64,000 nucleotides of DNA from Octopus sinensis (GCF_006345805.1 NC_042997.1:152520001-152584000), one strand, 5' to 3'. Numbered from the stretch's first letter, positions 1,623-57,015 are shown. The notes: a model not told the origin generated them from the letters alone. Program-made: numbers and translations.

Positions 1623-2238
1623 AAGGTGGCGAGCTAGCAGAATCGTTAGCACGCTGGGCGAAATGCGTAGCCGTATTTCGTCAGCCGTTACGTTCTGAGT
1701 TCAAATTTCGCCGAGGTCGACTTTGCCGTTCATCCTTTCGGGGGTCGATTAAATAAGTACCAGTTACGCACTGGGGTCGATATAATCGACTTAATCCGTT
1801 TGTCTGTCTTTGTTTGTCCTCTCTGTGTTTAGCCCCTTGTGGGTAGTAAAGAAATAGGTATTTCGTCTGCCGCTACGTTCTAAGTTCAAATTCCGCCGAG
1901 GTCGACTTCGCCTTTCACCCTTTCGGGGTCGATTAAATAAGTACCAGTTACGCACTGGTTTCGATATAATCAACTCAATCTGTTTGTTTGTCCTTGTTTG
2001 TCCCCTCTGTGTGTAGCCCCTTGTGGGTAAGAAAGAAATAAGAAACGTAAGCACGCTGGGCGAAATGCTTAGCGGTGTTTCGTCTGTCTTTATGTTCTGA
2101 CTTCAAATTCCGCAGAGGTCGACTTTGCCTTTCATCCTTACGTGGTCGATAAATTAAGTACCAGTTGCGTATTGAGGTCGATGTAATCGACTGTCCCTCT
2201 CCCTACAAAATTTCGGACCTTGAGCCTAGAGTAGAAAA
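1623..2238 (+). mobile_element. Three head-to-tail Nin/Deu-domain SINE copies (about 1623-1856, 1857-2042, 2043-2238)
   Basis: Repeated GAGGTCGACTTTGCCTTTCATCCTTTCGGGGTCGATTAAATAAGTACCAG core (Nin/Deu-like). The first two copies end in ...TAGCCCCTTGTGGGTA(G/A)..AAGAAATA and the third has a different tail. The same family recurs throughout the window. Confidence 0.85.
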
Positions 2239-2454
2239 TAATATGTATATAATATAACAGAATATATTATAATACTAGCATTAAAGACCCGGCGTTGCCG
2301 GGTCATAGTGCTAGTGCATGTATATATGTGTATATATATGTGTACATATTACATGTACATCTATATATATATATACATCTACAGATAAAATACAAAATAC
2401 AAAGTTATATCTTGATATCGCTAGTGATAACAATACTCAAAATATATAACAGAC

Positions 2455-2769
2455 TGGAATTGTTAGCCCGTCTCTTGTAATTTCGATCAATTGTATCTTG
2501 TCCTCCCTCTTGTATAGAAGTGCGGCTACAATCCAGCCTACCTCTACTTCTGGGGGAGGGGGTGGCATTTAAATTTTTTTTCCGGGACGTCCTACGTCCC
2601 AGATATAAAGGTAGAATTAAAATATTTCCACTTTGCAAGTCCGAGTCGAGTACTCCCTTGCACGCTCCGTTGACTCGAACCTTGCTTCTATTGTGGCGAA
2701 TTTACCGCCTCTGATTAGATAACTTTCATAGTCGCACCAAGACACTTTTCGAAGGTGCTTTCCTCCATG
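2455..2769 (-). pseudogene. Diverged internal fragment of a fourth ORF1 homolog
   Basis: Frameshifted minus-strand translation YLIRGGKFATIEARFESTERAREYSTRT / LQSGNILILPLYLGRRTSR / PPEVEVGWIVAALLYKREDKIQL aligns with the ORF1 of units A-C (e.g. FLTRGSKYGTVVVHFKSE..LLPMYMNRRITR..PPNVEAEWIVAAVI..EEKVDIL). Confidence 0.75.
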
Positions 2770-4426
2770 TTATTTCTTTATTACCCACCAGGGGCTACGA
2801 AGAATGGCGGACATAACAAAAACATGGGGACATAGAACAATATGATTAAATTTATGAGCAAATGAAAATGAAAAAGATAATATGAAAGCGATGCTAACGG
2901 CCCCCTCCGCCAGCATCACTTACCTGTCCTTTTGTTTTCACTGTCACCTGAATGTTCATTCCCAATACGAAGACCATCCATATCCATTCTTACTCCGAAA
3001 CTGTCCTCCATATATTCCACGAATTCATCGCTCATTCTTGTATCTTTCACCTCCCAATTCTCCTTTCACACCTCAACACAAACTCATCTATATTCTTCTT
3101 TTCCAGCACTGCATATCTGGTCCCATCCATTTCATACCATTCATACTCCTCCATTACCCTTTCAACCTCTTTCTGTTCAGTCACAATATAAATGTTCGGC
3201 CTGGGTTCGTTTCAAACTCTTGTCTGTCTGTATTGTTATTTTTCTTTTGTTTTCTTGTTGGAGGGGAGCGGGTGGGTTCACTGTCTGCAGGGGAAGGGTG
3301 GGATTCAGAGGGTGCGGGTGGTGTTGGGGTGGGTTGGGGCTTCGCACAGTTTTTCTTTTTCTTTCTTTTTCTCTTTTTTCTTCCTTCTTCCCACTCTTGT
3401 TGCATCTCCTCTTCTTCTGTCGTTTCTTTTTCCCTTTGGTTCTCTTTGGTTTCTTCCTCTTTTGGGGCTTCCGCGACGATTTCCTTTTCTTTTTCCTTTA
3501 GTGGTGGAGGGCAGTAGGCTCTTATGTGACCCCTCAGGCCACACTTGTAGCACCTGGGCGCCCTACCCTCCACCCACACTCTCATAATAATATTTCCAGT
3601 TTTTATACTGTCCGTAAGCTTTTCTATAACTTCCGCCTCCGTCTGTATGTTCATTACTAGTGTGGCACCTCTCACGCCTTCATATTTCATATGGCGTGGA
3701 GGATGTCCACTTTATCTTCATTTCCTTTGATAACCGCAGCCGTTATTAATTCGCCCTCTAGGTGTGGAGGTATTCCTTCCACCCTAATTCTGGTGGTCCT
3801 TCTATTCAAATACGAGGGGAACAAGTAAAACTTTTCTGTACTCACCACCTTGGCTGCTATATTCCTGGCTGCTTTCTCACTTTTAAATTGTACCGTTATG
3901 GTTCCATATTCTAATCCTTTTGTCATGTACACAATTTCTTCTCCTGTCCGTTTGAAAGCCTCTTCAATTGCTTCCATGTTAATCACTTCCATTTTTCTAC
4001 CTCCATTCATAAATACTTTATATTTAATGGTTCTACGATGGAACCAGTCTCCGCGCCCTGCTAGAGGCAACAGCTCAACCTCTCCGTTCTCCTCCTCCTT
4101 CATGAACTCCTGGAAGTCCGTCAACTTAGCCAGGTCTATCTCTTTTTCTGTTGACTTCTTCGTTATACCTGCGTAGGTGCTTTCCATTTTTTTCACCGCC
4201 AACTCCTCCTCAGATGTCGACGAATTTTCAGAGAAATTTCTCCCTTCCATCTCATCCGTTTGGTAGAGGCGGCTCATAGTCGCCTCAGACCGAAAAACGG
4301 CCTCCCGAACAGAAAACGTGCGACGCACAGAACCAGTGCGACGCGAAACCGCACCAACCGACGTTCCAATTCCGCAACCACAATTCACTTTTGTTGTTTT
4401 TCTTTTTTAACCGAATTTTACAGAGC
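2770..4426 (-). mobile_element. ORF1-only non-LTR retroelement, unit A
   Basis: About 1.66 kb unit with a conserved 5' leader (GCTCTGTAAAATTCGGT..), ORF1, a 3' hairpin and the tail ...TAGCCCCTGGTGGGTAATAAAGAAATAA. No RT or endonuclease sequence. Confidence 0.8.
3181..4280 (-). CDS. Tx1/L1-type ORF1-like nucleic-acid-binding protein with CCHC zinc knuckle (one frameshift near 3690)
   Basis: ORFs 3687..4388 and 3181..3690 join by a 1-nt indel relative to unit C. Contains a YAG motif, a putative RRM-like region, RCYKCGLRGHIRAYC (CX2CX4HX4C), an acidic/basic linker and a Pro-rich stretch. Start codon uncertain. Confidence 0.75.
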
Positions 4427-6103
4427 TATTTCTTTATTACCCACTAGGGGCCACGAAGAGGGACATTACAAAACATGAGGGACATAAAACAATGCGGTTA
4501 AATTATGATTAAATGAATGTTAAAAATGAAAAAATGATAACATGAAAGCAATGCTAACGGCCCCCTCCGCCAGCATCACTTACCTTTCCGTTTCCTATCA
4601 CGATTCCAAAGTCTTTCACCTCACCTTTCATTTCTCTCTCAAACCTCTCTATCATATCATTTCTCATATATTCTGACAAACAATTATACGTAGTTCATTG
4701 CACTTGCTCATCAAAGAGCCCATGAGTTCGAAATCGAATACCGCATAACTTCCGTCCTCATACTCCTGCCATACATTGTCTTCAAAAGCCTTCTTGCATT
4801 CTCTGTATCTCCCTTCCTCACAACACACAAAAAGTAGGACTGGGGCTTTTGTATGTTTTGTATGTCTGATTTCGTTTTTCTTGTAGGCGGGGAGTGGGTG
4901 GGTGGGATTGCTGTTTGCGGGGGCAGGATGGGTCTCCAAAGGTGTGGGTGGTGTTTGGGTGGGTTGGGGCTTCACACAGTTTTTCCTTTTCTTTCCTTTT
5001 CTCTTCTTTCTGACCTCTTCATACTCTTTTTGCGTCTCTTCCTCATCTGTCGTTTCCCTTTCCATCTGCTTCTCTTTGATTTCTTCTTCTTTTGGGGCTT
5101 CCTCTTTTGGAGTTTCCTCAACAATTTCCTTTTCTCCCGGTGGGGGAGGGCAGAAGGCTCTTATGTGGCCCCTCAGGCCACACTTGTAACAACGTGGAGC
5201 TCTGCCCTCCACCCACACTCTCATAATCACGTCTCCAATTTAATGCTCTCCGCCAGGTCCGCCAGCACCTCACTCTCCGCCTGCACGTTCAGCTCCACTG
5301 TTACTCCTCTCCAGCCCTCGGTCCTGACCGAGGCATGGAGAATATCAACTTTCTCCTCGTGGCCGCTGATCACAGCCGCCACAATCCATTCAGCCTCCAC
5401 GTTTGGTGGCACTCCCTCCACCCTTACTCGTGTAATCCTTCTATTCATGTACATAGGTAGGAGTGTTACCTTTTCTGACCTCACCGCCCTCACCGCCATC
5501 TTCCTCGCTGCAGTCTCACTCTTAAAATGTACCACTACGGTACCGTACTTCGATCCTCGAGTCAAAAAATGATTTCCTCCTCCGATTTTCTCAGGGCCTC
5601 CTCTATCCATTCCATTTTTACGATCTCTATTTTCTTTCTTTCGTTCAGGAAACCCTGTAAAGTATAGTCCTCTTATTGTACCATTCCTTTCTCTTTGGCG
5701 GTGGTTCCAGTTCTACCTCGCCGCTGTCCTTCCTCATATACCTCTGGAAACCTGGCAATTTTTCTAGGTTTATTTCATTTTCCTGTTTCGTCTTCTTTTT
5801 TGCAACTCCTGCGTACGTTTTCCTGTTTTCAGTCTCCACATTTTTTACCTCACCGATTTGCTCGTTTTCAGAGTTCGATGTCTCCGACAAGCTCTCAAAT
5901 ATCCATTCTTCCTCCGACTCCTCCACAAGGGAGTGGTCATCCATCTCTCCCGCCTGACAGGCCAAACGGCCGTCAAAACAGAAAAAGTGTAACGCGCAGA
6001 ACCAGTGGAACGCGAAACCGCTTTAACGCCGTTCAAAATTTCCACAACAACAACAATTCTTTTTGATCTTTTTTTACCGAATTTTCAGAGCGCAAAAAAA
6101 CGC
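4427..6103 (-). mobile_element. ORF1-only non-LTR retroelement, unit B (diverged paralog)
   Basis: Same leader, 3' hairpin and tail as unit A. ORF1 is in pieces (5645..5965, 5227..5610, 4664..5230) with RCYKCGLRGHIRAFC. Confidence 0.8.
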
Positions 6104-7750
6104 TTATTTTTTTATTACCCACTAGGGGCTACATAGAGGGGACATTACAAACATGGGGCATAGAACATCACAATTACATATATATGAGCAAAATGGATAT
6201 GAAAAATGGTATATGAGAGTGATACCGACGGCCCCATCCGCCAGCATCACTTATCTATCCTTCTTCACCCATTTCCAATTAGTATTCCTTTTTTTCTATC
6301 ACACACTCGTTTTCTTTTAGCCATCTCTATCCATTCATCTTTCATTTCCACTGACTTCCAACACACACCCTTTCCTCAAACCTTCTCGCCAATATACCCG
6401 TATCATCACTATCCACAGCCGTGTAGCTACAATCTTCGTGTTCGTACCACTTGGTTAACACCCATTTTTTAACGTTTTGTATGTCTTTCCCATGTATAAC
6501 ACATAAAAAATGGGTCTGGGACTTTCTTTGCTCTGTGTGTCTGTTTTTGATTTTCTTGTAGGCGGGGAGTGGGTGGAATCACTGTATGCAGGGAAGGATG
6601 GGACTCCAAGGGTATGGGTGGTGTCGGGGTGGGTTGGGGCTTCGCACAGTTTTTCTTTTTCTTTCTTTTTCTCTTTGTTCCCCCTTCTTTCCACTCTTGT
6701 TGCATCTCCTCTTCTTCTGTCGTTTTCTCTCTGTTTGTTTCTGTGTTTATTTTCTCCTCTCCTGAGGCTTCCTCAACGCTTTCCTTTTCTTTTTCCTTTG
6801 GTGGGGGAGGGCAGTAGGCTCTTATGTGACCCCTTTGGCCACACTTGTAGCACCTGGGCGCCCTACCCTCCACCCACACTCTCATAATAATATTTCCAGT
6901 TTTTATGCTGTCCGTAATCCTCTCTATAACATCCGCCTCCGTTTGAATGTTCATAACTAGTGTGGCACCTCTCACGCCTTCATACTTCATAATGGCGTGG
7001 AGGATGTCCACTTTATCTTCATTTCCTTTTATAACCGCAGCCGTTATTAATTCGCCCTCTAGGTGTGGAGGTATTCCTTCCACCCTAATTCTGGTTGTCC
7101 GCCTATTCAGATACGAGGTAACAAGTAAATCTTTTCTGTACTCACCACCTTGGCTGCTACATTCCTGGCTGCTTTTTCACTTTTAAATTGCACCGTTACG
7201 GTTCCGTATTGTAATCCTTTTGTCATGTACACAATTTCCTCTCCTGTCTGCTTGAGAGCCTCTTCAATTGCTTCCATGTTAATTACTTCCATCTTTCTAC
7301 CTCCATTCATAAATACTTTATATTTAATGGTTCTACGATGGAACCAGTCTCCGCGCCCTACTGGAGGCAGCAGCTCAACTTCACCGTTCTCGTCCTCCTT
7401 CACAAACTCCTGGAGGCCCGCCAACTTAGCCAGGTCTATCTCTCTTTCCGTTGACTTCTTCGTTACACCTGCGTAGGTGCCTTCCATCTTTTTCACCGCC
7501 ACTCCTCCTCAGATGTCGATACTTCCGTCGAAATTTCAGAGAAATTTCTCCCTTCCATCTCCTCCGTTTGATGGAGGCGGCTCATAATCGCCTCAGACCG
7601 AAAAACGGCCTCCCGAACCGAAAAAGTGCAACGCGCAGAACCAGTGGAACGCGAAACCGCCCCAACGCCGTTCAAAACCTCCACAACACAACAACTCTTT
7701 CTTTACCGAATTTTACGAGCGTAAAAAACACGGAGCCGAAAAACGCGACC
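6104..7750 (-). mobile_element. ORF1-only non-LTR retroelement, unit C (close to unit A)
   Basis: Same organisation. ORF1 is in pieces (7493..7684, 7107..7502, 6469..7083) with RCYKCGQRGHIRAYC. It has the longest 5' leader. Confidence 0.8.
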
Positions 7751-8261
7751 TTTTTTCTCTACATTGTATACTTTATAGACAATAGTCTTTTCTTTATTTA
7801 ATTTTTTATTATCCATCTGGACTATTCCATTTCTGCAGGCTAATTTTATTTTAAATTTATTCCCATTCATGTGAAACCACTTATTCAAGTTCAAGTCAAT
7901 GATGCAATTTTATACCAATTGCTATTTTTACTTTTTTTACTACATATAATTCAATTGTTATTATTATTTTTATTGTTAAAGTGAAAGTATCTGACATAAA
8001 ATAGAGAAACGTTTTTGTTTCACTTTTAACACGTAATACTGAAATAGTGGAGAAGACATGATATTGCTATGGGCTCGCTCTAGGCAAGAAGTTGAACATT
8101 TTTTTGCCCATGAAACTACATGGACCCTAAATAAGGCATGTGTAAAATTTGAATGAAATTGGTTGTGTTGTTCTTAAGTTTTAGGGAAACACACAGACAG
8201 ACAGACAGACACACATTCTCAGTTTTATATATATAAAGATAATACAATATGATATAATATA

Positions 8262-8479
8262 ATGGTTTCAAATTTTGCCACAAGGATAGCAATTTTTGAG
8301 GAGGGGGATGAGTCGATTACATCGACTCCAGTGTTCAACTGATACTTATTTTATCGGTACCGAAAAGATGATAGGCAAAGTTGACCCCGGCAGAATTAGA
8401 ACTCAGAACGTAGCAACGGGCGATATACTGCTAAGCATTTCGTTCAGCGCGCTAACAATTCTACCAGCTCGTCGCCTTA
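8262..8479 (-). mobile_element. Nin/Deu-domain SINE
   Basis: Reverse-complement match to the family at 1623-2238. Confidence 0.8.
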
Positions 8480-8548
8480 TATAATATAATACAATTTGAT
8501 ATAATTTAAAATTATATAACATGTGTGTATATGTACGTATATGTGCTG

Positions 8549-18337: not shown

Positions 18338-18713
18338 TGGAAGCGCAATGGCCCAGTGGTTAGGGTAGCAGACTCAGGTCGTAGGATCGCGGTTTCGATT
18401 CCCAAACCGGGCGTTGTGAGTGTTTATTGAGCGAAAGCGCCAAAAATTCCACGAGGCTCGGCAGGGGATCGTGGTGAACCCTGCTGTACTCTTTCACCAC
18501 TGCTTTCTCTCACTCTTTCTTCCTGTTTCTGTTGTACCTGTATTTCAAAGGGCCAGCCTTGTTACACTCTGTATCACGCTGAATCTCCTCGAGAACCACG
18601 TTAAGGGTACACGTGTTTGCGGAGTGCTCAGTCACTTTCACGTTAATTTCACGAGCAGGCTGTTCCGTTGATCAGATCAACTGGAGCCCTCGTCGTAAAC
18701 GACGGAGTGCTAC
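18338..18713 (+). mobile_element. tRNA-derived SINE (third family)
   Basis: tRNA-like head TGGCCCAGTGGTTAGGG..GGTTTCGATTCCC. Its 3' part recurs on the minus strand at about 55505-55665. Confidence 0.8.
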
Positions 18714-19150
18714 GATGTATGTATGTACGTATGTATGTATGTATGTATGTATGTATGTATGTATGTATGTAGTATGTATGTATGTATGTATGTATGTATG
18801 TATGTATGTTTGTATGTGTGCACGTATGTATGGATGTATGTAAGTTTGCGTGTATTTCTGACGGTAGTGTATATCTTCTAATGCATATATTTACATATGT
18901 TGATCAGATCAACTGATCCGTTGATCAGATCAACTGGAGCCCTCGTCGTAAACGACGGAGTGCTACGATGTATGTACGTATGTATGTATGTATGTATGTA
19001 TGTATGTATGTATGTATGTATGTATGTATGTATGTATGTATGATGTATGTATGTATGTATGTTTGTATGTGTGCACGTATGTATGGATGTATGTAAGTTT
19101 GCGTGTATTTCTGACGGTAGTGTATATCTTCTAATGCATATATTTACATA
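18665..19150 (+). repeat. Local tandem duplication (about 235 bp x2) of SINE end, (TATG)n and flank
   Basis: 18665-18897 is repeated at 18918-19150. Confidence 0.85.
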
Positions 19151-20178
19151 TCTATACGTACATGCTCATATATACTTAAATGATAATCTTCTGGAAAGTT
19201 TTACAGATTTTACAGTACCAGCGATGGCTTGGATCTGTAGTCTTCGAATTAACTTTCTCCTTTCTGGTTTTGAGAAGCCTAATTTCTCAAGATTGGTATT
19301 TAGGCAGTGTGTTACACAACTCAGTGTCCCCATAATTACAGGTATAAACCTGAACTTGTAATCTGGATTGAGTCACTGCAGATTTCTCAATAGTTCAGCG
19401 AAAGTATTCTCTTTTCCACTGATCTTATATTAACATTATCCTAACATATGTATGTATGTATGAATGTATGAATGTATACGCGGAGTAGACGAAACGGAGG
19501 CGGCTGAAGAAGGGGAATTTTCCTTGTGTCGTATGTCTTGTACCCTGATTTTTCGTTGTTTAAAAAAAATGTCCGTTTCCACGGTTCCGTCTTTATGTTT
19601 TCGTTTCGCACTGTGTTCGACGATTTTTTGGTGTCCTCTACCTATATATGCATGTATATATACATGTAGATGTAGGTACGTACATATATGTATGTATATA
19701 TGCATATGTTTTATTTATTATTTTGTTATGTATGTATGTATGTATGTATGTATGTATGTATGTACGCATGTACGTATGTAGGTACGCACACACGTAGTAC
19801 ATACGTACACACGCACGTAGTAGTACGTTTGTACGTAAGTACCCATGTACGTATGATTGTATGTAGGTACATATGTATGTATGTATATATATGTATGAAT
19901 TCATGCATATGTATATGTAGATGTAACTAAGTGCTTGAAAAATGTGTGAATATGGGTGTATGTGATAGTAATGATGCAGAGACAAAACACACTCATACAT
20001 GTGTTTATAAGTTTGTGCATATATACATATCTGCGTGTTTATACACACGTATAAAGAGGTAGTGGCATGCGAGTGTAAAAGTGCGAATGAAACTGAACAT
20101 CTGTTTTAGATATAATAGACAGTACGCGCAAGTTTGAATAGGTGTTTGCTACTGTCTGTCTATCTGTCTGTCTGTCTG

Positions 20179-20670: not shown

Positions 20671-21957
20671 ATATATATATATATATGTAAGGGTGTGTGT
20701 TTCGACGCAGGAAAAATTTGTTGTTGAAAATGCACCTAAGTTTGGAAAACTTGTACTTGTTTAAAATGCATTTATTTAATTATATACCAAACTAGTTTCA
20801 ACAATACATTTTGTTTATCAATAGTAAAAGTATAAAATTATGAACTAGAAAAACATCTTTGAAAGTTTCAATGAGTGACATATTTAAATGTTCATAACTG
20901 ACAAATTTAGAATTATGAATTAGGAGGACAGGTGCAGGAATTTCAATATTGATAAGTTTAAATGTTCATAGCAGTCAATAATATTAAAACTGTGCATTAA
21001 TTTAATTTGAATGTACAAAGCTCATTAATGTTAGTAGTGATCGACAAGAAATGAATATCATCAAAGTTTCAGTCATACTGATTTAAGAGGGAAAAAACAA
21101 GGGAGAAATGAAGATAGCTAAAAAAGGGAATTTGGTTTACAGTTTCTCTGATCCTCTTTCCGTGGGAGCTTTCGCTTGGAGCGGTATGTTTTGGAATCAG
21201 GTGTATTTATATTTTTTCCGGGAACGAATCTGATTTTTGACTCATTAAAGTACTTGTGACATCTAGTTTTTCCGGCGGTCAAGTTTGTCGTTCTGCCTGG
21301 TTAGCTTCCTTGTGGAAAACGGTCATCAGTCGTTCCGGTTGGTTGATTCTCTTAAAGGGTCATTTCGTTGTATTTACTGAAGTTCGGTTTTGATTTGGTT
21401 TAGAGTTAGGTGACATCGGCCACTGGTGTTTATAAAATTTCATTGGTCTAGAGAAAGATGACGTCGGCAACTGGTGTTTGTATGGTGATTTGGAGTTGCG
21501 GTTTATTTTTATTTTTATGTTTTTTGATTTATTATTAGTATTGCTTAATATGTTTTCCTAAAACTGCTGTTTCTTTTCAGATATCATCAGAAAAATGTAA
21601 TTAAAATTCATTAAAATGACAGAACTATCGAACATTCAAAGAGGTCAAATTGTTGGTGTTCGTATGGCAGGCGCTAGCGTAACGAAAACAGCCGAAATGT
21701 TTGGTGTATCATCAAGTACTGTCTCGAAAGTTATGACAGCCTTTGATAAAGAGGGAAACATCGCCTCGTCAAAACAAAACTCCTGAAGAAAACTAAAACT
21801 TTCAGAAAGGGACTGTCGGATTCTTATGTGAATTGTTAGAAAGGATCACAAAATTACAGCTCCCAAAATTACTGCAGGGCTTAATGCCCACCTCGAGAAT
21901 TCAGTTTCCACAAAACCTGTTCACCGGGAGCTGCACAAAGCTGGATTTCACGGGTGG

Positions 21958-22057
21958 NNNNNNNNNNNNNNNNNNNNNNNNNNNNNNNNNNNNNNNNNNN
22001 NNNNNNNNNNNNNNNNNNNNNNNNNNNNNNNNNNNNNNNNNNNNNNNNNNNNNNNNN
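21958..22057. other. Assembly gap (100 N)
   Basis: Run of N. About 1.27 kb to the left of the gap is repeated to its right. Confidence 0.99.
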
Positions 22058-22949: not shown

Positions 22950-24080
22950 TTTTCAGATATCATCAGAAAATGTAATTAAAATCATTAAAATGATGACAGA
23001 AACTATCGAACTTTCAAAGAGGTCAATTGTTGGTGTTCGTATGGCAGGCGCTAGCGTAACGAAAACAGCCGAAATGTTTGGTGTATCATCAAGTACTGTC
23101 TCGAAAGTTATGACAGCCTTTGATTAAGAGGGGAAACATCGCCTCGTCAAAACAAAACTCCTGAAGAAAACCAAAACTTTCAGAAAGGGACTGTCGGATT
23201 CTTATGTGAATTGTTAGAAAGGATCACAAAATTACAGCTCCCAAAATTACTGCAGGGCTTAATGCCCACCTCGAGAATTCAGTTTCCACAAAACCTGTTC
23301 ACCGGGAGCTGCACAAAGCTGGATTTCACGGGTGGGCTGCAATTAGAAAACCACTACTTCCAAAAACAAACGTTGCAAAGCGTTCAGAGTGGAGTAAAAA
23401 CCTACAGAATTGGTTCTGAGAGCAGTGGAAGAATGTTATTTTGTCGGACGTGTCATCCTTTACCTTATTTCCGACAACCGGCCGAATATACGCGTGGAGA
23501 CAGCCAAAAGAAGCATCTGATCCAGACTGCCTACTTCCTACTGTTAAACACGGAGGAGGATCTGTGATGATCCGATGGGGGCTATATCTTGGAAATCCTG
23601 TGGATCAATGGTTTCCCTTCATGGCAGAGTTAATAGTCAATACTTTTGAAGCATTTGATCTGATGAAATTCATCCTATGGTTGCTGAACTGTTTCCGGAA
23701 GGAAATGCAATCATTCATGATGTTAATGCACCAATTCACACAGCTAAAGTTGTTATTGAATGGCACGAGGAACATTCTAGTGAAGTTGAATATTTTACCT
23801 GGCCACCAGAGTCCCCAGATCTCAATATTATTGAACATTTATGGTACATTTTAGAAAAACAAATAAGGAGTCGATATCCCCCACCATCATCACTACAAGA
23901 ACTGGAGACTGTTTTAGTTGAAGAATGGACAAAAGTTCCTTTGGAAACAATTCAAACTTTGTACGAGTCCATAGCTTGTCGAATTCAAGCTGTAATTACT
24001 GCCAAAGGCAGTCCTACCCCATGTTAACATAAATTTGTCTGAAATTTTAAGGCGTTTCAATTATTTTGTCCAACCCCTGT
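22950..24080 (+). mobile_element. Tc1-family transposon (DD34E-type), defective
   Basis: MTELSNFQRGQIVGVRMAGASVTKTAEMFGVS HTH region, then SDVSSF, HDVNAPIH and WPPESPDLNIIEHLW. Right TIR ..ATTTTGTCCAACCCCTG. Contains stops and frameshifts; the 5' part is duplicated at about 21580-21957. Confidence 0.9.
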
Positions 24081-41492: not shown

Positions 41493-42749
41493 CAGGGTAC
41501 GGTGAATATATTCTAGTCTAAATTACGCAAACATGAAATAACATTGACATCTCATTTTAAGAGATATTATATTTAACAAAAACACATAAAAATATCTTGA
41601 AATATTAAAGAGTAAATTTATTCAATAAAATCGTCATTGACGTCAACCATGACTTCCAGACGACTTCGGCATCTCCTGCAACTCTTCTGGACGGTCTCCT
41701 TGTTTAAGTCGGTGAATGCTGCCATAATCCTTGCCTTCAGTTCATCTTTGGTGTTACAAGGAGTTTTGATGGTTCCTCGCTCAACTGCGCCCCCCACACA
41801 ATAATCGAGGGGGCTTACACTCTGGCGAGTCAGGTGGCCAGATGTTAGGAGTAATGTGGTTGCAGAAATTGTCTGACAACCATGACTGAGTTCTCCTGCT
41901 TGTGTGGCATGCTGCAGAATCCTGTTGCAAGACATATGCTCTTTCAGTAGCCACTCTCTTGACCCAGTGAACCACTACCTCTTGAAACATGATATAAGCC
42001 TCCGTGTGGGAAGATGAATGGGGGCATAAGATACGCCATCCCTAGTCATCACACCAAACACCATGATGCTGATTGGATGTTTGATTTTTATCACTGTCGG
42101 TACATGCAGGCGAACGTTTGTTGTGTGTTCACCCTCTGATATTAGCAGAAAATTTCTTGTCAGAGAAAAACGAAAGCATGATCGGTTGGAGGAAATGCTT
42201 AAGTTTGTTCAAAAGCTTCGTAGCGCGGACTTTCCTCTTGTCCTTGATGGCTTGGGATAAAAGTTGGCCCTTTCTCACCTTGTATGAGGCATACCAAATG
42301 TCTTCATACACAACCTGACTGATAACAAACTCAGACCTTCCCATGTCTCTGGTGATGGACCTGATTGACTTGGAGGGAATGTTGTCAATCATAGCCTGGA
42401 TCTCACCAACAAATTCAGTTCTTTTCTTATCATAATGAGTTTTCCGGGCTGCCGTACCTGCGTAATCACTATTAGACTCATCCAACTCTTTCCTAATCCT
42501 CTACACTGTCCTCAGTTTGACACCCAAACACTCTAAACTGATCGTATTGGAATATGGCGCGAATGCCAAGCAGTTCAGCATGTCGTTTACCTATTCCTGG
42601 TAGAGTGAATTGCATCATAGTGTTGTTTTTCTCACAGGTGGTTCCCAACTGACCTAACTATACTGTGTAGTCAACAAAATCAAAAACAAACAGTGCTCAT
42701 GCACAAAATCAAAAATATAAAATGGCGACAATTTACCCATCGCATCCTG
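41493..42749 (-). mobile_element. maT (DD37D) transposon, defective
   Basis: FFSDKKF and QQDSAACH..WPPDSPECKP-LDY with 37 residues between the 2nd and 3rd D (across a frameshift). TA-flanked CAGG termini. Confidence 0.85.
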
Positions 42750-46707: not shown

Positions 46708-47977
46708 TCAGGTTGTCCCATAAATTCTGTCCGAATTTTGAATAAAGAAAACAAGTGATCAAATGTTATATTTAATTGAAATTTAATCCTCAATGCACTC
46801 TCCCTGATTATCTAGAACTTCCTTCCATCTATTTACATGCTTTTTAGCCCAATCAATGTAAAACTCTTTTGATTTCAAAGCGAAGAACTCTGAAATATCA
46901 GTTTCGATCTCCCCCTGGCTTGCGAAAGTTATATCCCCCAATGATTCTGTAAACTACGAAACAAATGGTAGTCTGAAGGAGCAAGGTCGGAAGAATAAGG
47001 TGGATGAGGAATTTTTTCCCAACCAAGCTCTTCGATCTTTTGTGATGTGATCTTTGCGGTGTGGGGTCGCGCATTGTCCTGATGAAACATCTCTCCTTTT
47101 CGATTCACTAAAGCGGGTCTTTTTTCGTCAAAGCTTCGTTCAAACGCTCTAATTGCTGACAGTAGACTTGAGCATTAATTGTTGCATTAGGTGGAAAGAA
47201 TTCATAGTGAATTACTCCTTTGCAATACCACCAGATACAGGGAAGAACCTTTTACCCATGAAGTTCCGTTTTTGGTTGTGGTTGAGCTTTTCCCTTTTAC
47301 CACGTTTAACATTTCGATAGAAGATACATTATTTATCACCTGTCACAAATCTATCCAAAAAATGAAATGAGTTCGCGAGAATAGAGAGAAGAGCAGATGT
47401 CAACTCGGGATTTGCGGTTGCTTTCGGACAATTCAAGAGGCACCCATTTTTCAAGTTTAGGAACCTTTTCAAGTTGTTGAAGATGACGATGAACTGTTGT
47501 GTAGTTTGAACTAAGCTTTGTTGTCAATTCTTCAACTGATAATGCAGGAGTTTCTTCAAGTAATGCCTCAAGGAGCATATGATCAAACTCAACTGGACGT
47601 CCTGTTCGATCTTCATCTTCAAGCCTGAAATCTCCACTTCTGAATTTTGCCAAACATCTTCTGCAAGTTCTTTCATTCAAGCATTCTTTCCCATAAACTG
47701 AGTGTGTTTCGAGTCGCTTCGGCTGCAGAGTTTCCTTTTTGTACTCATAAAGCATTATGTGCCTCAAAATGCTCTTTGGATACTTCCATGTTAGAAAGGG
47801 TTTTAATCAAAGAGATTTTAATTCTATTATTCTGTAAAATAATATTTAATTAGTTCAAATGTACGCAAATGCATAAAAATAATTTTAAATTCTGTTAGTC
47901 ATTCTAAAATACTATTAAATTCATATTCAATTTAAAATAAAAAGGTAAAATAGGACAGAACTTATGGGATGACCTGA
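46708..47977 (-). mobile_element. Full-length defective mariner element
   Basis: TA TSD and TIRs TCAGGTTGTCCCATAAATTCTGTCC / GGACAGAACTTATGGGATGACCTGA. Motifs WVPLELSE, HQDNARPH and PYSSDLAPSDYHLF. Confidence 0.92.
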
Positions 47978-51550: not shown

Positions 51551-52830
51551 CGATGGGTAAATTGTCGCCATTTTATATTTTTAATTTTGCGCATGATCAT
51601 TGTTTAGTTTTGCTTTTGTCGGCTGCACAGTATAGCAGAGTCAGTTAGGCACCGTCTGTGAGAAAAAACAGCACCATTACGCAATTCGCTCTGTCGGAGA
51701 TTTGGAAACGTCATTCTGTACTGCTTGGCATTCGCGCCGGAAGCTCGAATACGAACATTCCTGAGTGTTTGGGTGTCAATTTGAAGACAGTGCAGAGGGT
51801 TCAGAAAGAGCTGGATGTGTCTAATGGTCATTATACAGGTACGCAGCTCGGAAAACTCACTCTGATCGTCCTGAGAAGAAAAGAACTCCTGAATTTGTTG
51901 GTGTGATCGAGGCCTTGATTGACAACGATCCTTCCAAGTCAAGCAGGTCCATCGCCAGGGACATGGGAGTGTCTGAGTTTGTTATCATTCAGGTAGTGCA
52001 TGAAGACATTCAGTATTCTTCATACAAGGTGAGAAAGGGCCAATTTTTTTCCCAAGCCATCAAGGACAAGAGGAAAGACCACACTACAAATCTTTTGAAC
52101 AAACTCAAGCATCCCCTCCAACTGAATATGCTTTCGTTTTTCTCAGACAAGAAACATTTCTGCCAGGATCAGATGCTGAACGCACAGAACAACCGTTGGC
52201 GTCCCGTGTTCCGAAAACATGTATGGAGAGCGATAAAAATCAAGCATCCAGTCAACATCATGGTGTTTGGTTTGCTCACTAGTGATGGTGACGTAATGAC
52301 TCCATTCATCTTCCCATACAGCCTCACACCCAACACGGAGGCCTATATCAAGTGTCTGGAGAAGCTAGTGCGACCCAAGGTCATGAGGGTGGCTGCTGTA
52401 AGACCCTATGTCTAGCAACAGGGTTATTGCACCATGCCACACAAGCAGGATAACCCAGTCATGCCCGTCAGAGAAATTCTGCGACCACATCACCCCTAAC
52501 GTCTGGTCACCTAAGTCGCCAGTCTGTAACCCCAACTCGATTATTAGGCGTGGGGCGCAGTTGAGGGAGCGACCAACAAAACTCCTTGTAACACCAAAGA
52601 TGAACTGAAGGCAAGGATCATGGCAACATTCACCAACTTAAACAAGGAGACCGCCCAGAAGAGTGGCAGAAGATTTCGAAGTCGCCTGGCGATTTTATTG
52701 AATATATCAACTCTTTAGTATTTCAAGATACTTTTATGTCATTTTGTTAAATATACCTCTTAAAATGGGATGAATATTTTATTTTCATTTTTGCGTAATT
52801 TAGACGAAGTTTGACAATTGTGCTGCAACA
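51551..52830 (+). mobile_element. maT (DD37D) transposon, second defective copy
   Basis: Homologous over its length to 41493-42749, in the opposite orientation. Motifs FFSDKKHF, MVFGLL, APCHTS and WSPKSP. Confidence 0.85.
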
Positions 52831-55704: not shown

Positions 55705-57015
55705 TCAAGTAGTGTGGAGCGACTGACCTCCCTTGTTCGAAGGTTATATGGATACAGTTTGTGTATCAAATAGCTAACTTAAGGCGATGGCCTCATGGAG
55801 CTAATAAGCGGACAGCTTTATTCTTGTTTTTATAAGAGTGCCATATTGGTATGGCGATAACTATTAATTTCCAGGAACGCTGCCGTGTTCTCTTTTAGAG
55901 AGACTTAGTAATTTTAATATTTCTATTATTGAAAACAAGTGGATGTATTCCACCGAAACTAGGTAAATAAAACCTTCGAACAGAGATAGTCGGAAGCGAC
56001 ACCTGCTGGTCTGACTGCACTGCATTGACAAGGGGCAATGCCCCGAAGCGCGTCTGTGGCTGTCGATCAAGTAGTGTGGAGCGACTGACCTCCCTTGTTC
56101 GAAGGTTATATGGATACAGTTTGTGTATCAAATAGCTAACTTAAGGCGATGGCCTCATGGAGCTAATAAACGGACAGCTTTATTCTTGTTTTTATAAGAG
56201 TGCCATATTGGTATGGCGATAACTATTAATTTCCAGGAACGCTGCCGTGTTCTCTTTTAGAGAGACTTAGTAATTTTAATATTTCTATTATTGAAAACAA
56301 GTGGATGTATTCCACCGAAACTAGGTAAATAAAACCTTCGAACAGAGATAGTCGGAAGCGACACCTGCTGGTCTGACTGCGCTGCATTGACAAGGGGCAA
56401 TGCGCCGAAGCGCGTCTGTGGCTGTCGATCAAGTAGTGTGGAGCGACTGACCTCCCTTGTTCGAAGGTTATATGGATACAGTTTGTGTATCAAATAGCTA
56501 ACTTAAGGCGATGGCCTCATGGAGCTAATAAGCGGACAACTTTATTCTTGTTTTTATAAGAGTGCCATATTGGTATGGCGATAACTATTAATTTCCAGGA
56601 ACGCTGCCGTGTTCTCTTTTAGAGAGACTTAGTAATTTTAATGTTTCTATTATTGAAAACAAGTGGATGTATTCCACCGAAACTAGGTAAATAAAACCTT
56701 CGAACAGAGATAGTCGGAAGCGACACCTGCTGGTCTGACTGCGCTGCATTGACAAGGGGCAATGCGCCGAAGCGCGTCTGTGGCTGTCGATCAAGTAGTG
56801 TGGAGCGACTGACCTCCCTTGTTCGAAGGTTATATGGATACAGTTTGTGTATCAAATAGCTAACTTAAGGCGATGGCCTCATGGAGCTAATAAACGGACA
56901 GCTTTATTCTTGTTTTTATAAGAGTGCCATATTGGTATGGCGATAACTATTAATTTCCAGGAACGCTGCCGTGTTCTCTTTTAGAGAGACTTAGTAATTT
57001 TAATATTTCTATTAT
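55705..57015 (+). repeat. Tandem array of a 362-bp unit (3.6 copies) with hammerhead-like motifs; retrozyme-like
   Basis: Units start at 55705, 56067, 56429 and 56791 with only a few substitutions between them; the array ends in (TA)n. Confidence 0.92.
56019..56060 (+). ncRNA. Variant minimal hammerhead motif (also at +362 and +724)
   Basis: CTGCA-TTGACAA-GGGGC aat GCCCC-GAAG-CGCG-TC-TGTGG. U3-A8 core, with G at position 15.1. Confidence 0.6.

Follow-up and report, generated by a model that had tools for sequence, protein, structure and literature searches.

The 64,000-nucleotide stretch of Octopus sinensis DNA analysed here (GCF_006345805.1, NC_042997.1:152520001-152584000), referred to as the window, contains a non-autonomous Helitron of the HLE1 type at 2275-8239 on the minus strand, in which retroelement sequences are nested in two layers. 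An old, decayed fragment of a retrotransposon open reading frame 1 (ORF1), termed D, is cargo of the Helitron and is present in a large share of its copies. Three ORF1-only retroelement units, A, B, and C, were later inserted into D. The overall explanation that we hold with moderate confidence has three steps, namely, a Helitron carrying D, the insertion of A, B, and C into D, and the spread of the Helitron loaded in this way. An earlier, sequence-only reading had offered a choice between the capture of a retroelement cassette by a rolling-circle element and a Helitron serving as a landing pad. This choice missed the two layers: D is indeed cargo, and the en bloc capture of a four-unit cassette did not hold.

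Canonical Helitron termini were confirmed on the minus strand. At the 5' end (8195-8239), TC at 8239-8238 is preceded by A, and a (GTCT)4 repeat lies at 8210-8195 rather than at 8239 itself, where it had been placed earlier. At the 3' end (2275-2304), a 19-nucleotide (nt) hairpin at 2304-2286, with a perfect 8-bp GC-rich stem and a 3-nt loop, is followed by 7 bases and then by CTAG at 2278-2275 and a T. The folding energy of this end is -15.1 kcal/mol (z -5.98). Within the window, a stem of this kind ahead of CTRRT was detected at this hairpin alone, one time on each strand, and none of 20 shuffled windows contained one. The hairpin also extends to a longer stem (2274-2315), in which the terminal CTAG pairs with an upstream CTAG.

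The Helitron lies in a tract of pentamers. The left half of the tract (2241-2274) lies at the end of a plus-strand array at 1620-2250 of a repeat that we take to be a short interspersed element (SINE), and the right half (8240-8262) adjoins a minus-strand SINE at 8252-8481. The array at 1620-2250 comprises three SINE-like units, head to tail, and the second copy faces it, tail to tail, from the other side of the Helitron site. When 2275-8239 was removed, the pentamer tract was restored in phase, as the sequence-only reading had stated, with 24 of 30 matches across the joint at offset 0 and 23 at +5, against 3 to 18 at the eight out-of-phase offsets compared. The 5' TC, a palindrome within the range of 16 to 20 nt whose end lies 11 nt from the CTRR terminus (approximately 11 bp in HLE1), and insertion between A and T without a target-site duplication (TSD) agree with the HLE1 features given in the available parts of PMC11417382 and PMC4067079. 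No second copy of the Helitron was found within the window.

Copies were compared by aligning contigs and reads from public runs to window positions 2050-8500. Contigs came from X1 and X16, runs labelled as two different organisms, and raw reads came from X21 and X22. The contig pieces listed were 144 to 295 bases long. Statements on joints refer to the 15 joints listed, another 449 falling outside these, and every depth comparison in X1 and X16 uses summed contig depth, which is not copy number. Matching raw reads numbered 21 in X21 and 146 in X22, with little SINE in both, and were too few to test the junctions.

Array-free Helitrons were found in both contig runs. Contigs joined 7750 to 2770 through a linker of 11 to 13 nt (8 + 3 contigs in X1, 2 + 1 in X16), and others joined 7750 to 2466/2467 (3 + 3 contigs in X1, 3 in X16). 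Because these contigs join both halves, the two Helitron ends belong to one dispersed family with a basic form of approximately 997 bp, and the earlier view of a single Helitron was borne out; the arms were also of similar depth in X1. The summed depths in X1 were 773k for the Helitron 5' bin, 744k for the D bin, and 444k for the 3' bin, the last containing a skipped repeat. The corresponding values in X16 were 150k, 71k, and 78k, so that the depth of D relative to the Helitron 5' part was 0.96 in X1 and 0.47 in X16. Units A to C had a median depth across 22 bins of 10,024 in X1 and 526 in X16, which is 74-fold and 135-fold shallower than D, respectively. Since D is about as deep as the Helitron ends and A to C are far shallower, D is cargo of the Helitron and A, B, and C are later insertions. 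By the depth ratio, copies loaded with A to C make up roughly 1% of Helitron copies.

D is divided into two pieces on the minus strand. The upstream piece, D5' (7751-7879), covers positions 32 to 57 of an ORF1 profile and scored 7.6 bits alone (7849-7751). The downstream piece, D3' (2455-2770), covers positions 62 to 161, that is, the remainder of RRM1 and the start of RRM2, and scored 53.8 bits in one frame (2724-2470); it is degenerate and has neither a knuckle nor a tail. The profile was made from 101 database relatives, with 7 fused or artefact rows excluded, and contained no window sequence. Read with X at the breaks, D3' scored 87.8 bits, and with D5' placed ahead of it the score rose to 111.5 bits. 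This gain of 23.7 bits was matched by none of 1000 shuffles (best 10.2) and none of 2000 random window stretches (best 8.8). The two pieces are colinear on the profile, with 4 positions missing at the break, in agreement with the 11-to-13-nt linker of the array-free contigs. The 13-nt linker form continues into D3' as RFEQMEESTFEKCLG, compared by eye with MLEQFEESTIEKYLG in the relative P0062.

D accounts for approximately 445 of the 997 bp (about 45%) of the array-free Helitron. It shares 32/117 residues with C, 32/117 with A, and 35/113 with B (27 to 31%). In a tree in which 79 of 114 rows were retained for coverage, D grouped with P0062 (0.93), and A, B, and C formed a separate clade (1.0). 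Because D5' upstream of A continues in D3' and the tree places D apart, A, B, and C were inserted into D. The supposed fourth copy of the array is accordingly no array member; it belongs to a distant ORF1 lineage, extends to the upstream side of A (7879-7751), and is split by the array.

Units A (6104-7746, 1643 bp), B (4427-6103, 1677 bp), and C (2771-4426, 1656 bp) are arranged head to tail on the minus strand. Together with D, they bring the ORF1-derived share of the Helitron interior to approximately 5.4 of 5.97 kb, all on the Helitron's strand, close to the 5.3 of 6 kb of co-oriented ORF1 sequence estimated previously; no ORF1 unit copies were found elsewhere within the window. Each unit has a frameshifted ORF (ATG at 7585, 5944, and 4277 in A, B, and C, respectively), a hairpin in the 3' untranslated region (UTR), and a tail. 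Unit A has a full 5' end, and that of C is about 11 nt short. A and C share 1291 of 1600 nucleotides (81%, and about 90% across the RRM region). B is a more distant subfamily, about 65% identical to both, sharing 1067/1614 with A and 1037/1600 with C. The ratio of nonsynonymous to synonymous substitution rates (dN/dS) was 0.26 in the RRM segment and 0.14 in the knuckle segment for A versus C, and 0.22 and 0.23, respectively, for B versus C. Therefore, A, B, and C are subfamilies of a retroelement with a selected ORF1 and not duplicates made within the Helitron. Tandem duplication of one captured unit was likewise ruled out by these ratios and by the divergence among the units. In X1, a joint of a C tail to an A start reached a depth of 656, and therefore arrays exist in other orders.

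The 3' UTR hairpins (6251-6218 in A, 4581-4546 in B, and 2921-2886 in C) are conserved, with 14 to 15 bp and z scores of -4.0 to -5.4. At their variable pairs, changes are one-sided and pairing is retained. Folding of the 5' UTRs did not exceed that of shuffled sequences (z -0.11 to 0.72). The units end in a tail approximately 0.55 to 0.6 kb past a proline-rich stretch, and the same tail is present on the SINE units at 1830-1856 and 2013-2041, two of the three units of the plus-strand array. The available text of two SINE papers (PMC4758252 and PMC4824008) does not name a long interspersed element (LINE) as the donor of this tail. Conservation among the units restarts abruptly at a splice-donor-like motif (6255, 4584, and 2924, minus strand), GGTAAGT in B and C and GATAAGT in A, which leads into the 3' UTR hairpin. 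The C-terminal coding parts (about 3220-2930, 4870-4590, and 6540-6260, minus strand) are only about 45 to 55% identical, and the flanking parts are far less divergent. The units also appear mosaic, B being distant across the RRMs and about 82% alike near the knuckle.

Relatives of the ORF1 protein numbered 108 at E <= 0.001 among 1.84 billion representatives, two of which (P0040 and P0107) were rejected as repeat artefacts. Nine of the ten relatives looked up came from Octopus vulgaris, O. sinensis, O. bimaculoides, or Argonauta hians. The AlphaFold (AF2) model of the best relative, P0001, contains two RRM-like domains, with a mean predicted local distance difference test (pLDDT) score of 79 and values above 90 across most of residues 81 to 280. 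In Foldseek, it matched tandem-RRM proteins, and in a separate structural comparison its best VIA score (Z 9.5) was to the La RRM. A CCHC knuckle lies downstream of these domains, and zf-CCHC is the sole Pfam match of the units. Neighbours in the protein atlas are zf-CCHC and ZCCHC3-type RNA-binding domains (0.90 to 0.92). On the predicted structure, the unit protein is a type I ORF1p, defined in the part of PMC5203782 available as RRM plus CCHC knuckle, and this combination is the one expected of the Tx1 clade. No match to Transposase_22, the mammalian-type L1 ORF1p, was found in the unit proteins or their relatives. Among the Pfam matches listed (25 of 34 families), none of 112 relatives had an endonuclease or reverse transcriptase family. 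Word-seeded protein searches (883 and 7997 candidates) yielded no longer relatives, which is weak evidence.

Several gene models fuse ORF1 to host domains, namely, C2H2 fingers (P0015), LDLa (P0042), WD40 (P0091), and astacin (P0095). The splice-donor-like motif of the units may be a cause of such fusions. A small C-terminal domain to which the atlas gives no family name is present in P0003, P0004, P0047, and P0109; a profile of the C-terminal domain from five relatives did not detect it in the C-terminal regions of the units (best 1.7 bits).

At the junction of the Helitron with unit A, three extra bases, GTC, occupy 7747-7749 on the minus strand, and the junction lacks 11 bases that the array-free Helitron has, the letters that lie between 2770 and 7750. 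No TSD flanks A to C, the longest shared word being 6 bases. The available text of PMC2881922 gives loss of target bases as a known outcome of target-primed reverse transcription. In the contig runs, the same Helitron position followed by GTC was joined to a B/C-type 5' end at a depth of 1556 in X1 (3 contigs) and 247 in X16 (2 contigs). For comparison, depth in the shallowest contigs or residuals was 31 to 49 in X1 and 3 to 9 in X16; if the shallowest contigs are single copy, the junction would be present in approximately 35 to 40 copies in both runs. Unit pieces in X16 had depths of 162 to 358, near the junction depth of 247. In X1, 11 of the 21 B sites listed and 1 of the 9 A sites listed (537.5) had a residual depth of 516 to 810 without the listed variant, a pattern not seen in X16. 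One set of letters accounted for 1409 of the 1556 depth at the junction in X1, and copies of the Helitron family are mostly less than 95% alike. A single uniform, deep junction fits one founding insertion that was copied with the Helitron and later changed in unit content, without proving it. Thus, later spread of the loaded Helitron is probable and is favoured over repeated site-specific landing.

The proposed history begins with an abundant, approximately 1-kb, non-autonomous octopod Helitron family that carries the decayed ORF1 fragment of about 445 bp; a RepHel partner presumably enables its rolling-circle transposition. A small fraction of the copies holds A, B, and C at one point in D, with 11 bases lost, 3 gained, and no TSD. 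These units probably entered by target-primed reverse transcription, carried out by a LINE partner, itself unseen, that would recognize the 3' UTR hairpin and the SINE-shared tail. The array may have grown by insertion at the tail of an earlier unit or by end-to-end template jumping. Finally, one loaded Helitron with both ends would have transposed on and founded a subfamily numbering in the tens of copies, which differ in unit content. The window copy would be one loaded member, inserted at an A-T step in the pentamer tract.

Several observations weigh against this history. Neither the array nor any single entire unit is covered end to end by a contig, a joint of 2274 to 8240, the empty site, is not among the 15 joints listed, and neither a RepHel nor a LINE partner was seen. 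The short side of the B/C-type joint is 27 letters, about 15 of them Helitron, and full-length units could in truth start with GTC, whose sharing would then be uninformative on descent. Unit B of the window differs by 4 to 6% from the listed deep contigs, and pieces of C differ by 0 in X16; this uneven divergence of B and C is not as expected for one block. A deletion form without the greater part of D3' equals the D-complete joint in depth, and therefore D is not carried by every Helitron copy. Furthermore, the Helitron 5' part in X16 is twice as deep as D, and raw reads of X22 cover the 5' part (about 21 deep, 7882-8097) with none on D3' or the 3' end; therefore, other families share the 5' part.

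The strongest alternative is site-specific landing, as for Tx1 in Tx1d (PMC6719617, from the text available), in which each loaded copy arose by its own insertion and no transport by the Helitron is required. It would account for the deep contigs in which another kind of 5' end, the B/C type, follows the same Helitron position, and it is in keeping with an ORF1 of the RRM and CCHC type, as in Tx1-like elements, and with the 13 recently active L1-Tx1 families that the accessible part of PMC13282606 gives for O. vulgaris. One site with two kinds of 5' end can nevertheless be explained by common descent, and independent insertions would be expected to show mixed letters rather than the one set that dominates the X1 junction. 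In addition, insertion in the same orientation needs no targeting when the available target, D, makes up nearly half of the basic Helitron, and the many ORF1 relatives fused into unrelated gene models suggest broad insertion by the wider family. Site-specific landing is considered unlikely. A bolder proposal, that an ORF1-only octopod lineage is a hyperparasite of the Helitron, preferring one site in the captured ORF1 scrap and building mixed head-to-tail arrays, with its young copies now made mostly by rolling-circle transposition rather than reverse transcription, is similarly doubtful.

One-off nesting in a dead Helitron was also considered. Here, the deep junctions would reflect segmental or tandem duplication or misplaced short contigs, and the loaded Helitron would never have moved. 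The Helitron and the SINEs are abundant enough for nesting to be expected, all three unit ORFs are frameshifted, and the spanning contig and the empty-site joint are both missing from the joints listed. However, the Helitron has two intact ends, its removal brings the target tract back in phase, high junction depth occurs in two runs labelled as different organisms, and unit content varies between junction forms. This explanation is quite improbable. En bloc capture, in which a Helitron read past its end into a ready four-unit array and truncated the fourth unit, would explain the co-orientation of all ORF1 sequence and the missing tail of D3', but it is refuted by array-free Helitrons with a continuous D, and a D that is split by A to C, continues upstream of A, is so dissimilar to them, and is 74 to 135 times deeper leaves it hardly credible.

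The components have counterparts among known systems. Capture of gene fragments by Helitrons is well known. Non-autonomous HLE1 Helitrons with captured fragments, as described in the available portions of PMC11417382 and PMC4067079, resemble the octopus family in the TC, hairpin, CTRR, and A-T insertion without TSD, in a decayed fragment whose position is the same in many copies, and in a microsatellite near the 5' end. In contrast, the octopus family captured part of a retrotransposon ORF1, within which a minority of copies hold a 5-kb array of entire retroelements. For the units, HAL1 (half-L1) of mammals, according to the accessible text of PMC5753468, is likewise a non-autonomous non-LTR (long terminal repeat) element encoding ORF1p only, whereas the octopus ORF1 belongs to the RRM-RRM-CCHC type (type I, PMC5203782) and not to the mammalian L1 type, and the octopus units have a structured 3' UTR, a short SINE-shared tail, head-to-tail arrays, and an octopod lineage. 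TRE5-A.2 of Dictyostelium (available text of PMC3159450) also kept ORF1, lost ORF2, and has a structured 3' module, which there is needed for mobilization in trans; unlike TRE5-A.2, the octopus units have no tRNA-gene target (ARAGORN found 0 tRNA genes within the window). The units thus work like HAL1 and TRE5-A.2 and are members of neither. The case of Tx1 in Tx1d also has a non-LTR element with an RRM/CCHC-type ORF1 at one site of a DNA transposon, but the octopus host is a Helitron, the units lack ORF2, and targeted landing is only a possibility here.

HeT-A of Drosophila is an ORF1-only element that forms head-to-tail arrays, and the octopus array resembles it in its ORF1-only units, several subfamilies, and tail-to-head joins. 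HeT-A inserts at telomeres (PMC2881922, in the part available), whereas the octopus array is interstitial, lying within a Helitron at 2.3 kb and 55 kb from the window ends and not at a chromosome end as for HeT-A and TART, and its units are 1.65 kb long with a short 3' UTR.

Searches in other directions added little. Scans of metagenomes and bacterial genomes gave 582 pattern matches, 0 of them confirmed, and a further scan gave 0; two loci were rejected as 21-base chance matches in GC-rich contigs. All 27 Rfam matches fell below the gathering score. Elsewhere in the window, decayed transposase frames, presumably Tc1/mariner-like by their motifs, lie at 23124-24027, 42129-42500, 47351-47806, and 51825-52415. 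The sequence ahead of a 100-N gap (21797-22057) recurs about 1.3 kb on (23124 onward), perhaps an assembly overlap. A 362-bp unit forms 3.6 tandem copies with 99% identity at 55705-57015, and a 253-bp unit is present twice at 18660-19151.

No published account of octopod ORF1-only elements or of this Helitron was found in the full-text literature, and the Zenodo library of O. vulgaris repeats, Repbase, and subscription journals may have these families. In the parts available, PMC13282606, on O. vulgaris repeats, names 84 Helitron and 80 L1-Tx1 families but gives no description of them; PMC9115989 covers RTE and Dong LINEs. No new enzyme and no new element class are indicated. Instead, the results suggest that ORF1-only (HAL1-like) retroelements underwent a deep radiation, apparently not described before, in both Octopus and Argonauta; these elements share their tail with a very abundant SINE and have been mis-annotated as host genes or fused in gene models. 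They also provide a clean example of a Helitron family with a retrotransposon ORF1 fragment, one that probably moves entire retroelement arrays. If the loaded subfamily is real, estimates of retroelement copy number and age would partly reflect rolling-circle spread.

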